NCBI GenBank assembly: GCA_026395055.1
Contig: JAPLZK010000003.1
Location: 99,855-163,854, forward strand
Direction: 5' to 3'
Length of the DNA stretch: 64,000 bases
Origin: Candidatus Uhrbacteria bacterium
Lineage (GTDB): Bacteria > Patescibacteriota > Patescibacteriia > UBA9934 > GWF2-40-263
Shown here one piece after another: positions 9,706 through 44,986 of the stretch (its first letter is position 1; each line of letters begins with the position of its first letter). Under the pieces are notes generated by a model. The model had not been told where the DNA came from, did not search any database, and saw nothing but the letters and a program-made list of their open reading frames with translations. Made by a program: the position numbers and the translations under genes.

Positions 9706-11535
9706 TTGCGGTATGATGTCGCAACAAAACCTATGGCTGTTCCGCTCCTCGAGGTGAACCACCTCAACAAATCTTACGGAAAACAAATCGTCGTAAAAGA
9801 CGTCTCTTTTGTGGTAACAGAAGGCCAAAAGATCGCTCTGATTGGACGAAACGGTTCTGGGAAGACAACGCTCATGAATATGCTTACGGGCGCAGAAGAG
9901 CGAGATTCTGGTGATTTCAAAGTATTCGATCGTACACGCGTCGGCGTTATCCGTCAGCATGAAGTGTTGCCAAGCGACGTCTCGGTCGCGATGTTTCTTG
10001 AACAACGAACCGGCAAGCCTGTTTGGACGATCGCGAAACTTGCATCCGAGTTCGGATTGCACACGGATCATCTCGAGAAAACAGCAGCGCAACTCTCGGG
10101 TGGTTATCAAATGCGTGTGAAGATTGTGGCCATGCTTCTTGAAGAACCAAACCTGCTTCTTCTCGACGAACCAGTGAACTATCTCGACTTGAATACGTTG
10201 CTTCTCCTCGAGCACTTCTTGAAATCGTATAAAGGAAGTTTCATTCTCGTCGCTCACGACCGCGAGTTCCTTGAAAACACCTGTACAACAACGTTCGAGC
10301 TAGAACGTGGCGAACTTACAACATACTCGGGGACGGTCGAGAATTATTTGGTGTTCAAGGAAGAGCAGCGGGAATATGCGCTCAGAACAAACAAGAAGCT
10401 TGCGCGCGAGATTGAACATCACCAAGAGTTCGTTGATCGATTTGGTGCGAAAGCAACAATGGCGTCACGCGCACAAAGCAAATCAAAGCACATTGCAAAA
10501 CTGCGAAAGAAAATTGCGGGTGTACATGCAGATCTTGCAACAACAAAGATTAAAATTTCTTGCCCAATGGTTCCGCCAGGAACGGCTGTGTATGCAGAGG
10601 AGGTTTCGGTTGGATATGGCGAGAAAGTGATCGTCGACAAAATCAATTTCCACATCAATCGTGGAGACAAGGTTGTGATTGCCGGAGAGAACGGTCAGGG
10701 AAAGACGACATTGTTGAAGACGCTCGCAGGAATTCTCGAGCCGCTTTCGGGAAAGTTAAAGTGGTGGCATCACGCGGACATTGGTTACTACGATCAGAAA
10801 GTAGACGCGACATTAATCGCAAACGAGACGGTCTTGAATTACTTGATGCGCATGGCGCCGCATATCTCGAGCGGCGAACGCATTCTCATGATGGCGGGAA
10901 ACTTTTTGTTTCGCGATGACGATCTCGAAAAGCCTACGAGCGTATTATCGGGAGGCGAACGTGCACGATTGTGTCTCGCGGGTATTTTGCTCCACGAACA
11001 TTCCGTGCTGCTTCTCGATGAGCCTACAAACCATTTAGATGTTGAAACGGCCGAAGCTCTTGCGATCGCTCTGAAACACTATGAAGGAACCGTCATCTTT
11101 GTTTCTCACGCTCGTACGTTCGTAAACGCGCTTTGCGATAAGGTTCTCGAAATCCGATTCGGTACGCTCAGAAACTATCCTGGACCGTATGAGGAGTATG
11201 TAGCGGATCTGGCTGAGTTGATGGCGATGGAAGCGGGTGACTCAAGAACCCCCTCCTTCGTCAAGGAGGGGGCAGGGGGTGGTCGTGCGCAGGAACGTAT
11301 CGAGAAGGCGGAGGCTCGCGCAAAGCTCAAAGAACTCCAGCGTGCTGTCGAGCGTCTCGAAAAGCTCATGAAAGTCCTGGACCGTGAGCGCAGTGAGATT
11401 CTCCAGTTCTATTTCGACAATCCAACCGAGTACGCGCCAGAAAAGGCAACGCGCCTTGGTGAACTTGATGAAGAGTACAAACAAAAAGAAGATGAGTGGT
11501 TCAAATTACAGGAACAGATTGAGGGGTTGTCATAA
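9706..11535 (+). CDS. ABC-F family ATPase (two ABC domains, C-terminal coiled coil)
   Basis: two Walker A (GRNGSGKTT, GENGQGKTT), two LSGG signatures, no TM domain; alternative start Met10 at 9733. Confidence 0.85.
   Translation: MRYDVATKPMAVPLLEVNHLNKSYGKQIVVKDVSFVVTEGQKIALIGRNGSGKTTLMNMLTGAEERDSGDFKVFDRTRVGVIRQHEVLPSDVSVAMFLEQRTGKPVWTIAKLASEFGLHTDHLEKTAAQLSGGYQMRVKIVAMLLEEPNLLLLDEPVNYLDLNTLLLLEHFLKSYKGSFILVAHDREFLENTCTTTFELERGELTTYSGTVENYLVFKEEQREYALRTNKKLAREIEHHQEFVDRFGAKATMASRAQSKSKHIAKLRKKIAGVHADLATTKIKISCPMVPPGTAVYAEEVSVGYGEKVIVDKINFHINRGDKVVIAGENGQGKTTLLKTLAGILEPLSGKLKWWHHADIGYYDQKVDATLIANETVLNYLMRMAPHISSGERILMMAGNFLFRDDDLEKPTSVLSGGERARLCLAGILLHEHSVLLLDEPTNHLDVETAEALAIALKHYEGTVIFVSHARTFVNALCDKVLEIRFGTLRNYPGPYEEYVADLAELMAMEAGDSRTPSFVKEGAGGGRAQERIEKAEARAKLKELQRAVERLEKLMKVLDRERSEILQFYFDNPTEYAPEKATRLGELDEEYKQKEDEWFKLQEQIEGLS
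11249..11272. repeat. GC-rich palindromic element CCCCCTCCTT-CGTC-AAGGAGGGGG, in frame inside ABC-F CDS
   Basis: perfect 10-bp inverted arms; encodes ...PSFVKEGAGGG...; near-identical copy at 34286. Confidence 0.5.
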
Positions 11536-15419: not shown

Positions 15420-15932
15420 TCACTTCACCTCGAGAATCGTATAAATCAATTCGTCTCCATGCGTCACAACCGAAATCGTTTCGCCGGCTGTGTGGCCAAT
15501 GAGGTGCGAGCCGAGTGGGGAGAGGTGTGAGATTCTTCCGCGCACCGGGTTTGCCTCTTGTGGCCCCACGATCTCAAACGTAAGTGTGTGATCATTCATG
15601 TTCAGCACAACCGTTGATCCGAGTTGAATACGATCTTTATCGTTTTCATCTTTTTCAATCACGACAACGTTTTTCAATTTCTCTTTAATGATGGTCATGC
15701 GCGACGCCAGGTTGCGCATGCGGTGTTTTGCTTCTTGATATTCGGCATTTTCCGAAAAGTCCCCGAGTTCACCCGTTGTCTGTGTGTCTTTTACCGCCTG
15801 TTTGTGTTGAATTTCAAAATCAATCAACTGATGGTTGAGTTTCTCAAGTCCAGCTTTTGTGAGGTAAACAGGCCCGTCATCGCCCTTAAGCTGATTGTTA
15901 TCGAGTTCTTTTTGTCGGGTTGGGAGACGCAT
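15420..15932 (-). CDS. greA: transcription elongation factor GreA
   Basis: GDFSENAEY motif, C-terminal FKBP-like ISHLSPLGSHLIGHTAGE. Confidence 0.85.
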   Translation of the reverse strand: MRLPTRQKELDNNQLKGDDGPVYLTKAGLEKLNHQLIDFEIQHKQAVKDTQTTGELGDFSENAEYQEAKHRMRNLASRMTIIKEKLKNVVVIEKDENDKDRIQLGSTVVLNMNDHTLTFEIVGPQEANPVRGRISHLSPLGSHLIGHTAGETISVVTHGDELIYTILEVK

Positions 15933-15982
15933 ATGCGGGAAGTATAGCAGGGGAACGGGGTTCGGGGCTAGGGATTAGGAAT

Positions 15983-16005
15983 AAAAAAAGACCCAAGATG
16001 GGTCT
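15983..16005 (-). terminator. intrinsic terminator after acidic-protein gene (minus strand)
   Basis: AGACCCA-AGA-TGGGTCT hairpin overlapping stop, A7 on + side = T-run on minus. Confidence 0.45.
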
Positions 16006-16846
16006 AGACGGGAAGGTTGGCGATGAGAGGCTTCGGAGGATCCTCGTAGCTGGGTTTGGCCCAGGTGTCGAAGACGTAGAAGAAGTCTTCTTCCTTATCT
16101 TCTCCATTTGGGGTGAAACTTGCCGGGAAGACCATGATGAAGATGTCTGAACCTTTGCAGTGCTCAGCGCAGTCATAATCACAGCGAGGGAAGTCTGAGA
16201 TGTAAAAACGGACGTTGTTGCCAAATGCGGCAATGATTTTTGCTACGCGTTCGAGAACACGTGTAGGAACAGGTTCGTCGTATAGTCGGCTGCTCCAGTC
16301 ATTTGAATCGTAATCGTCGTTGCCCCATTCTTGTTCGTTCATTCGATCGAAACTACGCAGTGGGCGCCAGTACCAACCGGATGAATCATCGAAGTACATG
16401 TTTTCCGTCAGCCAATCAATGACGTCCTTGCTTTCCGCGACCCCGATTTGTTCTTGGTTGAAGTAATTGACGAGTTTCGGGTATACCTGTTCAGGCGTAG
16501 CGCAACCAATCGACATCGCGAGGGCGGTGTTTGCTTCCGTTCCTGGAACGGTGACATTTTTGACTGGAACAGTAAATTTGGGAAAAGGCAAATTGTCTTC
16601 CACCGTTTCTTCTTCCTCCTCCTCTTCGTCATCGTCGACATTCTCTTCGTCTTCATCCGTTTCTGGCTCATCATCGTCCACAGCGTCTCGAATCGTGGCG
16701 ACGGATTGAACGCGTGGAATTGGATGATGGACAGGTTCGGTGTGTTGAGTCGTGCTTGGTGCCCGCAGTGCGGACGTTGGTTGATACGCCTCGAGTTGCA
16801 GTGGTGCTTTTCGATTATCTCCCCAGGTCCAGAATCTCCAATTCAT
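16004..16846 (-). CDS. hypothetical acidic protein with poly-Asp/Glu tract
   Basis: 280 aa; DDDEPETDEDEENVDDDEEEEEEETVED run then a Trp/Tyr/Asp-rich C-terminal region; no recognised domain. Confidence 0.45.
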   Translation of the reverse strand: MNWRFWTWGDNRKAPLQLEAYQPTSALRAPSTTQHTEPVHHPIPRVQSVATIRDAVDDDEPETDEDEENVDDDEEEEEEETVEDNLPFPKFTVPVKNVTVPGTEANTALAMSIGCATPEQVYPKLVNYFNQEQIGVAESKDVIDWLTENMYFDDSSGWYWRPLRSFDRMNEQEWGNDDYDSNDWSSRLYDEPVPTRVLERVAKIIAAFGNNVRFYISDFPRCDYDCAEHCKGSDIFIMVFPASFTPNGEDKEEDFFYVFDTWAKPSYEDPPKPLIANLPV

Positions 16847-30700: not shown

Positions 30701-31051
30701 ATGCTTCATCTTTTTTCGAAAAATCGTTTTCATGAATCTGTTGCGTGTGCGGCATTGCTTGCAGGTTCCATCACACTTCAAGTGATGTGGATCGTGAATT
30801 TGCTGGTTGTGCGTATTCCTTTTATCGCGCAATTGTATTCAATCGTTCCTTCTGTTGGACCAATTTCTGGAATGTATCTCAAAGCCGTTTTGACGTTTGT
30901 TCTCGTTTTTCTTATTGCCGCCTTGTATTGGCGAGGGAAAGATTGTTCACATCACAGAACATCTCTCTTGAACTTCTTTCTTTTTTCTACGGTGATCTTT
31001 TTTGTCATGACACTCCCGTTTGTGTATTCGTTTTCTGTGATGTTTGAATAA
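30701..31051 (+). CDS. hypothetical membrane protein
   Basis: 116 aa, 3 TM; follows previous gene by 4 bp. Confidence 0.4.
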   Translation: MLHLFSKNRFHESVACAALLAGSITLQVMWIVNLLVVRIPFIAQLYSIVPSVGPISGMYLKAVLTFVLVFLIAALYWRGKDCSHHRTSLLNFFLFSTVIFFVMTLPFVYSFSVMFE

Positions 31052-31097
31052 TTTAAGGAACACAGGTAAGCTCGGACAAAGCTTATCTTTTTATTTT

Positions 31098-32588
31098 ATG
31101 GAAATACACATCCGAAAATCCGATTTGGTCTCAGAAACAAGTGATGTCCTTGTTTTAAGTGTTTATCAAGAAAAACAAACGTTTGCTTCTTCTGCGGCTG
31201 TGGAAAAACTCGACGCACGTCTTGGAGGTCTTTTGACGCAAATCGCAAAGGAAGAATCTTTCGTTGGAAAGGCGAATCAAACCATGTGGGCACGGATCCC
31301 AGATCAACTCGCCTCAAAGCGCATCTTGCTTGTTGGGCTCGGAAAAAAGGAAGAGTGTGATCTTGAGACTATTCGTTTAGCCGCAGCAACCGTTTTGAAC
31401 AGCATGAAACAAACAACCACACAATCCGTGAGCTGTTTATTGTTCGGTGAAACTTCGGAAGTTCGTGAGCGTGCGCATGCCATGATTGAAGGTGTTCGAT
31501 TGGCAGATTACGGATTTGGACGCTATAAGAAACAAAAGAAAATGCATTTGAAATCATTCGACCTTCTTCTTGAGGATGGACGAGATTTGGTTGCGGCAAA
31601 AAAGGGAGTGGAACAAGCAGAGCAATTTGCAAAAGGAACGCTCTTTGTTCGAGACTTGGTGAATACACCAGGACTTCACATGGCGCCACAACACCTCGTT
31701 GATGAAGCGAATAACATCGCGAAGAATAATAAGCAGATTAAAATAAAAGTTTATAATGAAGAGAAGCTTGCAAAGATGGGAGCTGGCGGAATTCTCGGCG
31801 TCTCACAAGGATCCGATCATCCATCGTTTCTTGTACACATGACGTATACGCCTGTAACGAAGTCAAAGAAACGCATTGCCCTTGTTGGGAAAGGAGTCAC
31901 GTTCGATTCTGGTGGACTTTCGCTCAAACCATCTGCATACATGGCAACCATGAAGTGTGATATGGCAGGAGCGGCTGACGTGCTTGGTGTTTTCTCGGTT
32001 CTTTCTGCGATTGCGCCAAAGGTTGAGGTTCACGGAATCTTCGCTGCGGTCGAGAATATGCCATCCGGAAAAGCCATGCGCCCAGGCGACATCATTGAAT
32101 TCATGAATAAAAAAACAGCAGAAGTGTTGGATACGGATGCGGAAGGCCGACTCATCCTTGCGGACGCACTTGTATACGCGACGCGACAGAAGCCAGATGC
32201 GATTATCGATCTTGCAACGCTCACAGGTGCTTGTGTTGTAGCTCTCGGAGAAGAAATCACCGGAGTCATGTCTAATACACCAGCACTTTCAAACGCATTA
32301 TTGAGTGCGGCCGCATCGGCGGGTGAAAAAATGTGGGAGTTGCCACTCGAGAAAAACTATCGCAAGCAAATTTCTGGAGACTTCTCTGATTTGAAAAATA
32401 TTGGACCACGTTACGGCGGCGCACTTACAGCGGGATTATTTCTCGAAGAGTTCGTCGACAAGACACCATGGGCACACCTAGACATCGCAGGCCCAGCATT
32501 TGCGGAGCGTGATTACAATGCATATGAAAAAAAAGGGGCAACGGGGCATGGGGTGCGCACATTGTTGAAATACCTCCTGTCCTTCTAG
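31098..32588 (+). CDS. pepA: leucyl aminopeptidase (M17 family)
   Basis: ORF 31044 trimmed to MEIHIRKS; NTPGLHMAP, VGKGVTFDSGG, NTDAEGRLILADAL motifs. Confidence 0.85.
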   Translation: MEIHIRKSDLVSETSDVLVLSVYQEKQTFASSAAVEKLDARLGGLLTQIAKEESFVGKANQTMWARIPDQLASKRILLVGLGKKEECDLETIRLAAATVLNSMKQTTTQSVSCLLFGETSEVRERAHAMIEGVRLADYGFGRYKKQKKMHLKSFDLLLEDGRDLVAAKKGVEQAEQFAKGTLFVRDLVNTPGLHMAPQHLVDEANNIAKNNKQIKIKVYNEEKLAKMGAGGILGVSQGSDHPSFLVHMTYTPVTKSKKRIALVGKGVTFDSGGLSLKPSAYMATMKCDMAGAADVLGVFSVLSAIAPKVEVHGIFAAVENMPSGKAMRPGDIIEFMNKKTAEVLDTDAEGRLILADALVYATRQKPDAIIDLATLTGACVVALGEEITGVMSNTPALSNALLSAAASAGEKMWELPLEKNYRKQISGDFSDLKNIGPRYGGALTAGLFLEEFVDKTPWAHLDIAGPAFAERDYNAYEKKGATGHGVRTLLKYLLSF

Positions 32589-34173: not shown

Positions 34174-35145
34174 ATGCGAAACAAACGACCATTTCCAAAA
34201 ATTCCTGTGCTTTTGTGCCTGGTCGTCATTGCCGTGGTCGTTTTTCAGTATCGAGCCTATCGTTTGCCGTACGACCACCCCCTAACCCCCTCCTTGATGA
34301 AGGAGGGGGGAGTAGATCTGGTTTCCGGAATGCTGCTTCCAGACTCTGTTCCCGCCATTGATCATCCAAAATTTGAATCAACATCGGTTGCAGATCAATA
34401 TTTGAACAACGACGGGCTTGGAATCTCTGTTGAATCAAATGGAGCCTCACGATTTTATCCGTATCAGATTCTTGTCTGGCATCATGTTGTGAACGATGTT
34501 ATCTCTGGACAGCCTCTTCTTGTTTCATACAATCCGTTTGCGATGAGTGGGGCTGTGTATCAACGAACAACCCAAGGAACGGTTCTTGATTTCGGACTTT
34601 CTGATAAACTCGCAAACAGCAATCTTTTGTTGTATGATCGCGCCACGCATTCGCTTTGGGATCCGATGACGCATTCTGCGATCGATGGTGAGAAAAAAGG
34701 AACAGTGCTCGCGCGATATCCATCGACCGTGATGTTGTGGAATACGTACAAAACAGTTCATCCAGATGGTCAGGTCCTTTCTCGAGACACGGGCTTCTCG
34801 CGTGATTATACACACGACCCTTACGGAGATTATGTTTACAGCGAAAAAATTCTTTTTCCCGTAACACATAAAGACGATCGTCTCGCGTCAAAGGTTCTTG
34901 TGTACGGGATTGAATGGAATCAGAAACAGAAAGCGTATCCAATCATGCTTCTTGAGAAACAAAACACAGTCCGTGATTCGATTGACGGAGCGAATATATC
35001 CGTTGAGTATGATGCAAAGTCGCATGTTGTCCACGCTTATCAGCTCGACGCAAGTGGAAATCACCAAAACGAAATTCCCGTGACCGAATCATTTTGGTTT
35101 GCGTGGGTGGCAGGGTTTCCAAACACAGACCTTTATCATTCCTAA
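34174..35145 (+). CDS. DUF3179 family protein
   Basis: N-terminal TM, conserved ...SRFYPYQILVWHHVVND..., LLLYDRATHSLW, FWFAWVAGFPNTDLY pattern. Confidence 0.6.
   Translation: MRNKRPFPKIPVLLCLVVIAVVVFQYRAYRLPYDHPLTPSLMKEGGVDLVSGMLLPDSVPAIDHPKFESTSVADQYLNNDGLGISVESNGASRFYPYQILVWHHVVNDVISGQPLLVSYNPFAMSGAVYQRTTQGTVLDFGLSDKLANSNLLLYDRATHSLWDPMTHSAIDGEKKGTVLARYPSTVMLWNTYKTVHPDGQVLSRDTGFSRDYTHDPYGDYVYSEKILFPVTHKDDRLASKVLVYGIEWNQKQKAYPIMLLEKQNTVRDSIDGANISVEYDAKSHVVHAYQLDASGNHQNEIPVTESFWFAWVAGFPNTDLYHS
34286..34309. repeat. GC-rich palindromic element CCCCCTCCTT-GATG-AAGGAGGGGG, in frame inside DUF3179 CDS
   Basis: perfect 10-bp arms identical to copy at 11249; encodes ...PLTPSLMKEGGVD...; preceded by CCACCCCCTAACCCC tract. 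Confidence 0.5.
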
Positions 35146-44889: not shown

Positions 44890-44986
44890 GAGGGGTAAGG
44901 GGCTAGAGGCAAGGGACTAGATTGAAATAATTTTCGTTCTTGTACCACCCTTTGTCTCGTCCCTCGCCCCTTGCCCCTAACCCCTT
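44890..44986. repeat. long imperfect G-rich/C-rich inverted repeat in atpE-atpF intergenic spacer
   Basis: left arm GAGGGGTAAGGGGCTAGAGGCAAGGGAC, right arm GTCCCTCGCCCCTTGCCCCTAACCCCTT (23/28 complementary), ~40-nt loop. Confidence 0.45.

Follow-up and report, generated by a model that had tools for sequence, protein, structure and literature searches.

A predicted triplex-type DNA repeat lying in frame in two genes of a Candidatus Uhrbacteria contig

The 64,000-nucleotide stretch of Candidatus Uhrbacteria contig JAPLZK010000003.1 analysed here (the window) contains a gene for a DUF3179 protein, part of whose linker is encoded by a palindromic DNA segment. The same palindrome is read in frame in a second gene of the window, which encodes an ABC-F ATPase. 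Is such a segment a feature of the two proteins or a passenger in their DNA? To our knowledge, the triplex-motif repeats of bacteria (the BoxC, PIT and TM elements), known since the 1990s, have been described as strictly intergenic and have neither an accepted function nor an accepted mechanism of spreading. What sets the present element apart is chiefly its position within genes. The best explanation, to which we give a probability of about 0.75, is that the segment is one copy of a dispersed DNA repeat of ~36 nt, of triplex class II and non-coding in origin, that is tolerated in variable linkers.

A three-part element present twice in the window

The initial annotation regarded the DUF3179 segment as a second copy of an element at 11249. 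A search for CCCCCTCCTT-N4-AAGGAGGGGG that allowed up to three mismatches bore this out, giving exactly two occurrences in the window, one at 34286-34309 with loop GATG (copy 2) and the other at 11249-11272 with loop CGTC (copy 1). None is expected by chance, as 100 dinucleotide-preserving shuffles of the window gave no palindrome match. The 41-nt string originally quoted is present but occupies 34272-34312, and the start assigned to it, 34274, falls 2 nt inside. Copy 2 is not an assembly artefact, because the identical sequence is found in two independent public assemblies (loci L120 and L121).

The two palindromes had been described as having identical 10-bp arms and differing only in the loop. 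The arms are identical, but the description was incomplete. The copies are mutually inverted, because copy 1 aligns to copy 2 only when reverse-complemented, and this alignment gives a longer asymmetric core, ACGACCACCCCCT-(AA/G)-CCCCCTCCTTGA(T/C)GAAGGAGGGGG. About 13 flanking bases beyond the palindrome are common to both copies, and with orientations matched the loops differ by 1 nt. Read 5' to 3' on the G-rich strand, the full element of ~36 nt is CCCCCTCCTT-N4-AAGGAGGGGG-N2-3-GGGGGTGGT, which comprises a pyrimidine domain (Y), loop 1, a purine domain (R), loop 2 and a tail that forms the third, reverse-Hoogsteen (RH) domain (Table 1). Copy 1 is on the plus strand (11249-11283) and copy 2 on the minus strand (34274-34309), where it reads CCCCCTCCTT CATC AAGGAGGGGG TTA GGGGGTGGT, the 36-mer being CCCCCTCCTTCATCAAGGAGGGGGTTAGGGGGTGGT. 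The tail GGGGGTGGT mirrors the purine arm, G being kept as G and A replaced by T. The C-tract CCCCTAACCCC, earlier listed as a separate upstream motif, is instead a portion of this three-part element, the 11-mer being made up of part of the tail complement ACCACCCCC, the 2-3 nt spacer (loop 2) and the start of the stem.

Table 1 Domains of the two element copies and genes that carry the element (positions are those of the window; L numbers denote loci outside it)
Feature	Position	Strand	Sequence or remark
Copy 1, Y domain	11249-11258	+	CCCCCTCCTT
Copy 1, loop 1	11259-11262	+	CGTC
Copy 1, R domain	11263-11272	+	AAGGAGGGGG
Copy 1, loop 2	11273-11274	+	CA
Copy 1, RH domain	11275-11283	+	GGGGGTGGT
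Copy 2, RH (third) domain	34274-34282	-	GGGGGTGGT (plus strand ACCACCCCC); mirror of purine arm, A replaced by T
Copy 2, loop 2	34283-34285	-	TTA (plus strand TAA, read C-TAA-C = Leu-Thr); with its neighbours makes CCCCTAACCCC
Copy 2, R domain	34286-34295	-	AAGGAGGGGG (plus strand CCCCCTCCTT)
Copy 2, loop 1	34296-34299	-	CATC (plus strand GATG)
Copy 2, Y domain	34300-34309	-	CCCCCTCCTT (plus strand AAGGAGGGGG)
ABC-F ATPase gene	9706-11535	+	609 aa; Pfam-supported
DUF3179 protein gene	34174-35145	+	323 aa; Pfam E 2e-74, domain from residue 57
RNase R	L007		Pfam-supported host gene
Asparagine synthase	L018		Pfam-supported host gene, a Uhrbacterium
UvrB	L064		Pfam-supported host gene, two adjacent inserts
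DUF255 thioredoxin-like protein	L080		Pfam-supported host gene
Eco57I/MmeI-type methylase	L084		Pfam-supported host gene
RpiB	L035		Pfam-supported host gene
QueG	L031		Pfam-supported host gene
TatD	L011		Pfam-supported host gene

An antiparallel reverse-Hoogsteen purine-motif intramolecular triplex requires a purine arm and, after it, the mirror image of that arm, in which G faces G and either T or A faces A, and this is the arrangement of the element. In each copy all nine of the nine triplets are of allowed types (seven G.G-C and two T.A-T). An ITxF-like scan of the window (stem of at least 8, at most one mismatch in total) gave the two copies as its sole matches, each of class II, and mononucleotide-shuffled windows gave 0-2 matches even with a stem of 7. 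Measured against the ITxF hairpin limits (stem of 6-15 nt, at most one mismatch, loop of 1-6 nt), both copies have 10 of 10 Watson-Crick pairs, a 4-nt loop and a purine-only R domain. Both also have the antiparallel third domain of G.G-C and A/T.A-T triplets, reached through a loop 2 (limits 1-6 nt) of TTA or CA, and the non-random recurrence with conserved stems and variable loops typical of the ITxF class was found as well (see below). Upon folding as single-stranded DNA with ViennaRNA, which models hairpins only, the copies gave the 10-bp hairpin (-11.3 to -11.9 kcal/mol) while the tail stayed unpaired, and the hairpin formed on both strands. Judged by its sequence, the element adds a novel member to a known class, the class II purine-motif intrastrand triplex repeats of the BoxC/PIT/TMECO kind, the triplex itself being predicted.

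Scanning the whole window with Rfam 15 at gathering scores gave no family at the element, only two tRNAs and noise, and permissive Rfam scans of the site and of eight element-bearing loci likewise gave noise only (E >= 0.09, bit scores far below the cut-offs). A full-text literature search for the literal element strings returned only unrelated primer and human-gene matches, and nothing relevant was found in the literature on in-frame palindromic elements in the candidate phyla radiation.

Recurrence across phyla and the mirror rule

To follow the element beyond the window, the palindrome was sought in one genome per species with the tail left out of the search pattern. The bare palindrome was found at at least 119 genome loci in many phyla. 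Among the matches listed were Patescibacteria (Uhr-, Nomura-, Magasanik-, Shapiro-, Saccharibacteria and others), Terriglobia, Ignavibacteria/Melioribacter, Desulfuromonadales/Geobacter, the Alphaproteobacteria Erythrobacter/Novosphingobium, Gammaproteobacteria, Bacteroidota, Leptospira, Chthonomonadaceae (Armatimonadota), Binatia and more. A tail of the form G5-(T/A/C)-GG-(T/A) lay 0-9 nt from the palindrome in 108 of 130 copies (on one side in 95 and on both sides in 13), mostly with a stem-tail spacer of 2-3 nt. At a distance of 1-6 nt the tail accompanied 104 copies, versus ~0.2 expected from the background density of the tail in the same loci. The tail base facing the first A of the arm was T in 86 cases, A in 28 and C in 7, and that facing the second A was T in 110 and A in 11, never G or C. 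This preference for T or A opposite the A residues is the purine-motif triplex rule. The loops of the family were variable, the loop 2 counts being TT 17, TTA 12, TCG 6, TCA 6, CCG 5 and CA 5, with TTA the second commonest. In some genomes the repeat forms clusters and inverted pairs, and it is found in both orientations.

The mirror relationship extended to other stems. Mirror tails were present on 33 of the 88 G-rich purine hairpin arms of other sequence in the fetched loci (22 of them perfect), versus 9.8 on average and 17 at most over 200 composition-preserving permutations. Stem and tail covary in these variants, as in AAGGGGAGGG with GGGTGGGGT, AAGGGGGAGA with AGAGGGGGTT and GGGAGAGGGG with GGGGTGAGGG, which shows that the predicted triplex (mirror) rule holds over several sequence variants rather than for one sequence alone.

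Some further arrangements were seen among the loci. An extra unrelated hairpin of 10-30 nt lies between the purine arm and the GGGGGTGGT tail at L019 +6122, L022 +100, L060 -2927, L066 -6677, L093 -6274, L117 +6351 and L038 -3721. The tail is kept in these members despite the long spacer, and they would escape a scan with the ITxF-type limit of 1-6 nt on the loop. Locus L051 (GCA_964355525.1, CAYHDY01) carries three triplex motifs of three different sequences, the AGGGGGAG, GGGGAGGG and AAGGAGGGGG types, within 8 kb. Carriage of the repeat by phages was rejected, as the full motif was found once in 2.9 million viral contigs.

In-frame residence and turnover in host genes

Copy 2 encodes residues 34-46 of the DUF3179 protein, DHPLTPSLMKEGG (within the translation ...YDHPLTPSLMKEGGVDL...). 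This segment is in a variable linker that follows an N-terminal hydrophobic stretch (residues 9-26) and precedes the DUF3179 domain, in agreement with the initial annotation, which had it translated in frame just after an N-terminal transmembrane helix. The comparison of DUF3179 orthologues proposed at that time was carried out, and the segment has no counterpart in 19 orthologues of 88-42% identity, whose linker is short and variable (LPFQ-----TTMQQNAPDIISG in the closest orthologue versus LPYDHPLTPSLMKEGGVDLVSG in the window). Conservation of the segment in the protein without the DNA palindrome, which had been named as grounds for abandoning the idea of a DNA element, was not seen because the relatives lack the segment at the protein level. 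DNA comparison with the relatives gave neither a clean insertion boundary nor a target-site duplication at the DUF3179 site, where the linker sequences cannot be aligned.

In the ABC-F protein, copy 1 is read as TPSFVKEGAGGG and forms part of the linker that joins the second ABC domain to the C-terminal coiled coil. The history of this linker can be followed in the orthologues, in which presence of the element is specific to lineages. An orthologue of 91% identity (L125) has a decayed copy of the same length, CTTCCTCTATCACAAAGAACGGGTCGGGGGCAGATC, and another (L132) has a copy of the same type in another frame, with a paired C to T/G to A change in the stem. Remnants of the element are present in L126, L133 and L129. 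At the same place the orthologue of L127 (78% identity) carries a perfect motif of different sequence, CTCCCGCCCT TCG AGGGAGGGAG TCG GAGGGAGGGT, with 10 of 10 triplets, and no motif is found at the linker in L130, L135 and L136. The intact, decayed, remnant and differently sequenced copies indicate that the ABC-F linker is a long-occupied and unstable site, with turnover of the element, within one clade. Such turnover fits the instability reported for TMECO loci, a likeness that does not thereby show the mechanism of turnover. That the ABC-F linker might be a general host of such motifs was considered and rejected, as only 2 of 76 further metagenome ABC-F orthologues carry a motif and occupancy is limited to a close Uhrbacteria-like clade plus one other group.

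Two further observations concern these orthologues. In L130 (ABC-F orthologue at 1296-2138) the linker has a tandem repeat, GACTCCA(G/A)AG x3, which encodes TPEDSKGLQ in place of the triplex motif, suggesting that the ABC-F linker accumulates other simple repeats too. The assembly GCA_964355525.1 (L127 4798-4832, and L051) is titled 'uncultured Gammaproteobacteria', and this bin is probably mislabelled because the closest Uhrbacteria-like orthologues of the window genes lie in it.

How far is residence in genes general? Most copies of the family are intergenic. Among the 115 evaluable copies, 29 lie in open reading frames (ORFs) that continue for 60 codons or more to either side, versus 63% of random positions, and the fraction is 25% in Patescibacteria-labelled loci and in other loci alike. 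The repeat is thus depleted in genes but far from excluded from them, and the early suggestion of one repeat family spread over coding and non-coding DNA holds for the hairpin-tail family. The host gene was confirmed by Pfam in eight loci outside the window (Table 1), where domains flank the insert or one domain is interrupted by it. In the Nomurabacteria UvrB (L064 4095-6275) two adjacent in-frame motif-derived segments, ...TPSLIKEGAGGGN...PSSIRRGGSP..., are found in the UvrB interaction domain, and the Magasanikiibacteriota TatD (L011 4137-5105) has two adjacent in-frame motif-derived segments, ...LPPPLQRRGDDDSPPLRKGEGEGG..., inside a conserved domain.

Across these genes the palindrome is translated in all three frames (xPSLxKEG, PLLxKGGG and PPPxxRRG) and in both orientations, which argues for a passenger at the DNA level that is filtered by tolerance rather than for a selected peptide. 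The two window copies encode different flanking peptides (DHPLTPSLMKEGG versus TPSFVKEGAGGGR) because they are mutually inverted. The element probably survives in both window genes because the linkers that it entered are unstructured and variable in length and because its frame there has no stop codon. The recurrent low-complexity insert 'PSLxKEG/GGG' of predicted metagenome proteins would thereby be explained, such segments being passengers of the DNA rather than protein features. The Rickettsia palindromic elements (RPEs) are likewise palindromic repeats found in frame in protein genes, where they add a peptide at tolerated sites, but RPEs measure ~100-150 bp, are known only from Rickettsia, have unrelated sequences and lack a mirror or triplex domain. 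The window element, of 36 nt and with an Uhrbacteria-like host, has only the in-frame behaviour in common with them.

Relation to known repeats and rival explanations

The closest known system is a single prototype, which has been called in turn E. coli BoxC, PIT (potential intrastrand triplex) elements (Hoyne & Maher 2000, 2002) and TMECO (Holder et al. 2015, PMC4666352). TMECO has the pattern CCCTCNCCC-N3-6-GGGNGAGGG-N3-GGGNGAGGG and 3610 copies in 262 proteobacterial genomes, with a loop 2 of TTA (type A) or CCG (PMC4666352). In E. coli K-12 it is always intergenic, without strand bias, and TM loci are unusually variable between strains, indicating local instability, although TMECO was not found associated with mobile elements (PMC4666352). 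The isolated TMECO strand forms a very stable triplex as judged by circular dichroism and nuclear magnetic resonance, but dimethyl sulfate (DMS) footprinting in vivo detected no TMECO triplex, and TMECO/PIT elements had no promoter, terminator or RNA-polymerase effects (PMC4666352). We read one E. coli copy directly, beside lldD, as CCCTCTCCC TGA GGGAGAGGG TTA GGGTGAGGG; an E. coli query gave a median of 18 matches per genome, and among the matches listed none overlapped an annotated feature.

The window family and BoxC/PIT/TMECO share the order Y (9-10), loop 1 (3-6), R (9-10), loop 2 (2-3) and RH (9), with a purine-only G-rich R domain, an RH mirror having T or A opposite A, and a loop 2 that is often TTA or CCG. 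The loop 2 of copy 2, TTA, is that of TMECO type A and of E. coli BoxC. Both families have conserved stems and variable loops, are multi-copy and dispersed without strand bias, include some inverted pairs and occupy variable loci. They differ in sequence (CCCCCTCCTT/AAGGAGGGGG/GGGGGTGGT versus CCCTCNCCC/GGGNGAGGG/GGGNGAGGG, so that the window element does not fit the TMECO pattern), in G-tracts (only two tracts of at least three G in the window element, which leaves no three-tetrad G-quadruplex alternative) and in range, the window family being present in Patescibacteria and many non-proteobacterial phyla. They differ also in that about a quarter of window-family copies are in genes, in frame, with both window copies in Pfam-supported genes, whereas TMECO is intergenic only. 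As neither the TMECO sequence pattern nor the intergenic-only property is found, the window element is best placed in a sibling family and not in BoxC itself.

Two other groups of repeats come less close. Repetitive elements of Methanomicrobiaceae that combine potential quadruplex sequences with C-tracts form hairpin, triplex or G-quadruplex in vitro and switch between triplex and G-quadruplex in K+ (PMC8044849). They resemble the window element in having a G-rich repeat beside a complementary C-tract and, in vitro, a GC hairpin with an antiparallel G-rich third strand, but their C-tract is 3' of the G-rich part (a class I-like order) and they are archaeal, intergenic and endowed with four G-runs able to form a G-quadruplex (PMC8044849). 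REP elements and the BIMEs they make up are also short (20-40 nt), GC-rich palindromic repeats, dispersed singly or in clusters and in both orientations (PMC4666352). REPs, in contrast, are defined by an imperfect palindrome with a conserved 5' tetranucleotide and by an associated Y1 transposase, and they lack the third domain of mirror type. At copies of the window family no flank resembling GTAG is visible.

The element might work as follows. When the G-rich strand (the minus strand at copy 2) is single-stranded, Y and R would pair into a 10-bp hairpin, and the RH tail would then turn back and lie along R in the major groove, in antiparallel orientation, to give seven G.G-C and two T.A-T triplets. 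The element would act, if at all, at the DNA level in replication, repair or transcription, where the folded G-rich strand may stall polymerases and promote local change. It presumably has no function for the host protein, and the proteins would simply tolerate 12-13 extra residues in flexible linkers. Those linkers are probably made locally unstable by the element, as reported for E. coli TMECO loci.

Several points weigh against a dispersed triplex repeat. The 64-kb window has only two copies, and there is no known gene or mechanism that would mobilise them. For the window sequence the triplex is a prediction, and that of TMECO was observed with isolated single strands only, DMS footprinting in vivo having failed to show it. 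Tails are lacking from 22 of the 130 palindromes, some of which resemble ordinary terminators, and in 6% of tails the middle base is C. The loci were gathered by means of the exact palindrome, and conservation of the stem across phyla is therefore partly built into the sample. Finally, the DUF3179 copy is not a clean insertion, as ~42 nt with the element stand against ~27 unalignable nt in the relatives, a net gain of 15 nt. We infer mobility rather than see it because this copy replaces an unalignable linker.

Would a role in RNA serve better? The 10-bp stem contains AAGGAGG and CCTCCTT, and an RNA hairpin could pair a perfect Shine-Dalgarno (SD) sequence with an anti-SD-like CCUCCUU and thereby modulate translation speed, mask an internal SD or stabilise the transcript. 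The hairpin folds on both strands, hence in both mRNAs, and some copies elsewhere are just upstream of start codons (for example L079). However, this leaves the conserved third domain and the mirror covariation unexplained, and the stems of sibling motifs such as AGGGAGGGAG and AAGGGGGAGA have no SD similarity, for which reason the stem as a functional SD/anti-SD device was dropped. Copies are also found in either orientation with respect to genes, and Bacteroidota, which rarely use SD sequences, are among the hosts. There is no Rfam match, PIT elements lack effects on promoters, terminators or RNA polymerase (PMC4666352), and purine-motif triplexes do not form in RNA (PMC4666352). A role in RNA is unlikely because RNA forms no purine-motif triplex, the two mRNAs carry opposite strands and the sibling stems are not SD-like, and we consider the hairpin device quite improbable. 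A switch of the G-rich strand between hairpin and G-quadruplex is an alternative at the DNA level, and such toggling has been suggested for BoxC-like sequences of E. coli (Kaplan et al. 2016, as cited in PMC8044849) and for archaeal repeats. The G-rich strand does have four G-tracts (GG-A-GGGGG-TTA-GGGGG-T-GG), and the related archaeal repeats make a triplex/G-quadruplex switch in K+ (PMC8044849), but only two of the tracts have three or more G, so that no canonical three-tetrad G-quadruplex is possible, and the variants conserve mirror symmetry with T or A opposite A rather than four G3 tracts. We regard the switch as very improbable.

The manner of spreading raises another alternative, which may coexist with the preferred triplex repeat as its route of spread. 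The element could be REP-like, mobilised by an HUH/Y1 (RAYT-like) or other specific enzyme for which the tail is a recognition or guide sequence. It is dispersed and multi-copy in both orientations, with clusters and inverted pairs like BIMEs and a lineage-specific presence. However, no conserved GTAG-type 5' tetranucleotide is found at the copies (no transposase search was made), the full motif is nearly absent from viral contigs (the one match given above), TMECO lacks mobile-element association (PMC4666352), and a sequence-specific enzyme would not predict a mirror rule across different sequences. We consider this unlikely. A selected peptide motif (xPSLxKEG), or chance coincidence of low complexity, is effectively refuted. 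The motif xPS[LF]xKEG does recur in several proteins, but the use of three frames (PSLxKEG, PLLxKGGG and PPPxxRRG) and both orientations in different genes, the intergenic position of most copies and the orthologues without the peptide speak against selection, and zero matches are expected by chance. A doubtful but broader proposal is that intrastrand-triplex repeats rich in G/C are ancient, cross-phylum, non-autonomous mobile DNA of which the fold rather than the sequence is recognised by host machinery. Such DNA would colonise coding sequence in frame as RPEs do, its members would re-target or replace one another at the same permissive linker (AAGGAGGGGG versus the AGGGAGGGAG type of L127 in ABC-F), and it would generate variation in linker length and sequence in the streamlined genomes of Patescibacteria.

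If the preferred reading of a tolerated triplex-class repeat is right, a triplex-repeat member of different sequence is common to very distant phyla including Patescibacteria, and triplex repeats can occur in frame inside housekeeping genes (ABC-F and DUF3179 and, elsewhere, UvrB, RNase R, asparagine synthase, TatD and RpiB). The natural filled, empty and decayed sites are available for studying the origin of such repeats and whether they destabilise their surroundings.

The 11-mer CCCCTAACCCC had also been noted in the atpE-atpF intergenic repeat as a hint of a wider family of G/C-tract elements. The exact 11-mer is present in the window at 34279 and 44974, with four occurrences at up to one mismatch versus 0.12 expected, but kinship with the atp repeat was not supported. 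In the atpE-atpF spacer (44890-44986), G-tract heptads make up an imperfect inverted repeat, GGGGTAA GGGGCTA GAGGCAA GGGAC ... GTCCCTC GCCCCTT GCCCCTA ACCCC, in which the G/C tracts of the two arms pair and the spacers are mismatched (DNA fold -22.4 kcal/mol, z = -4.3). The arms are mixed purine/pyrimidine and have no mirror third domain, and the triplex-motif scan that found both element copies gave no match there. Kinship of the element with this repeat and with G-tract clusters at 15950 and 32535 was therefore rejected, only the 11-mer being common, and we treat the atpE-atpF repeat as a separate feature. The cluster at 15950-15973 (plus strand), in the spacer of the minus-strand ORFs 15420-15932 and 16004-16846, is GGGGAACGGGGTTCGGGGCTAGGG. 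Its four tracts of at least three G, separated by 3-nt loops, fit the canonical G-quadruplex pattern and share the heptad style of the repeat in the atp spacer. Another cluster of G-tract heptads, the third, is GGGGCAACGGGGCATGGGG, which follows an A8 run at 32535-32553 near the 3' end of ORF 31044-32588, and may be coding or just past the true stop.

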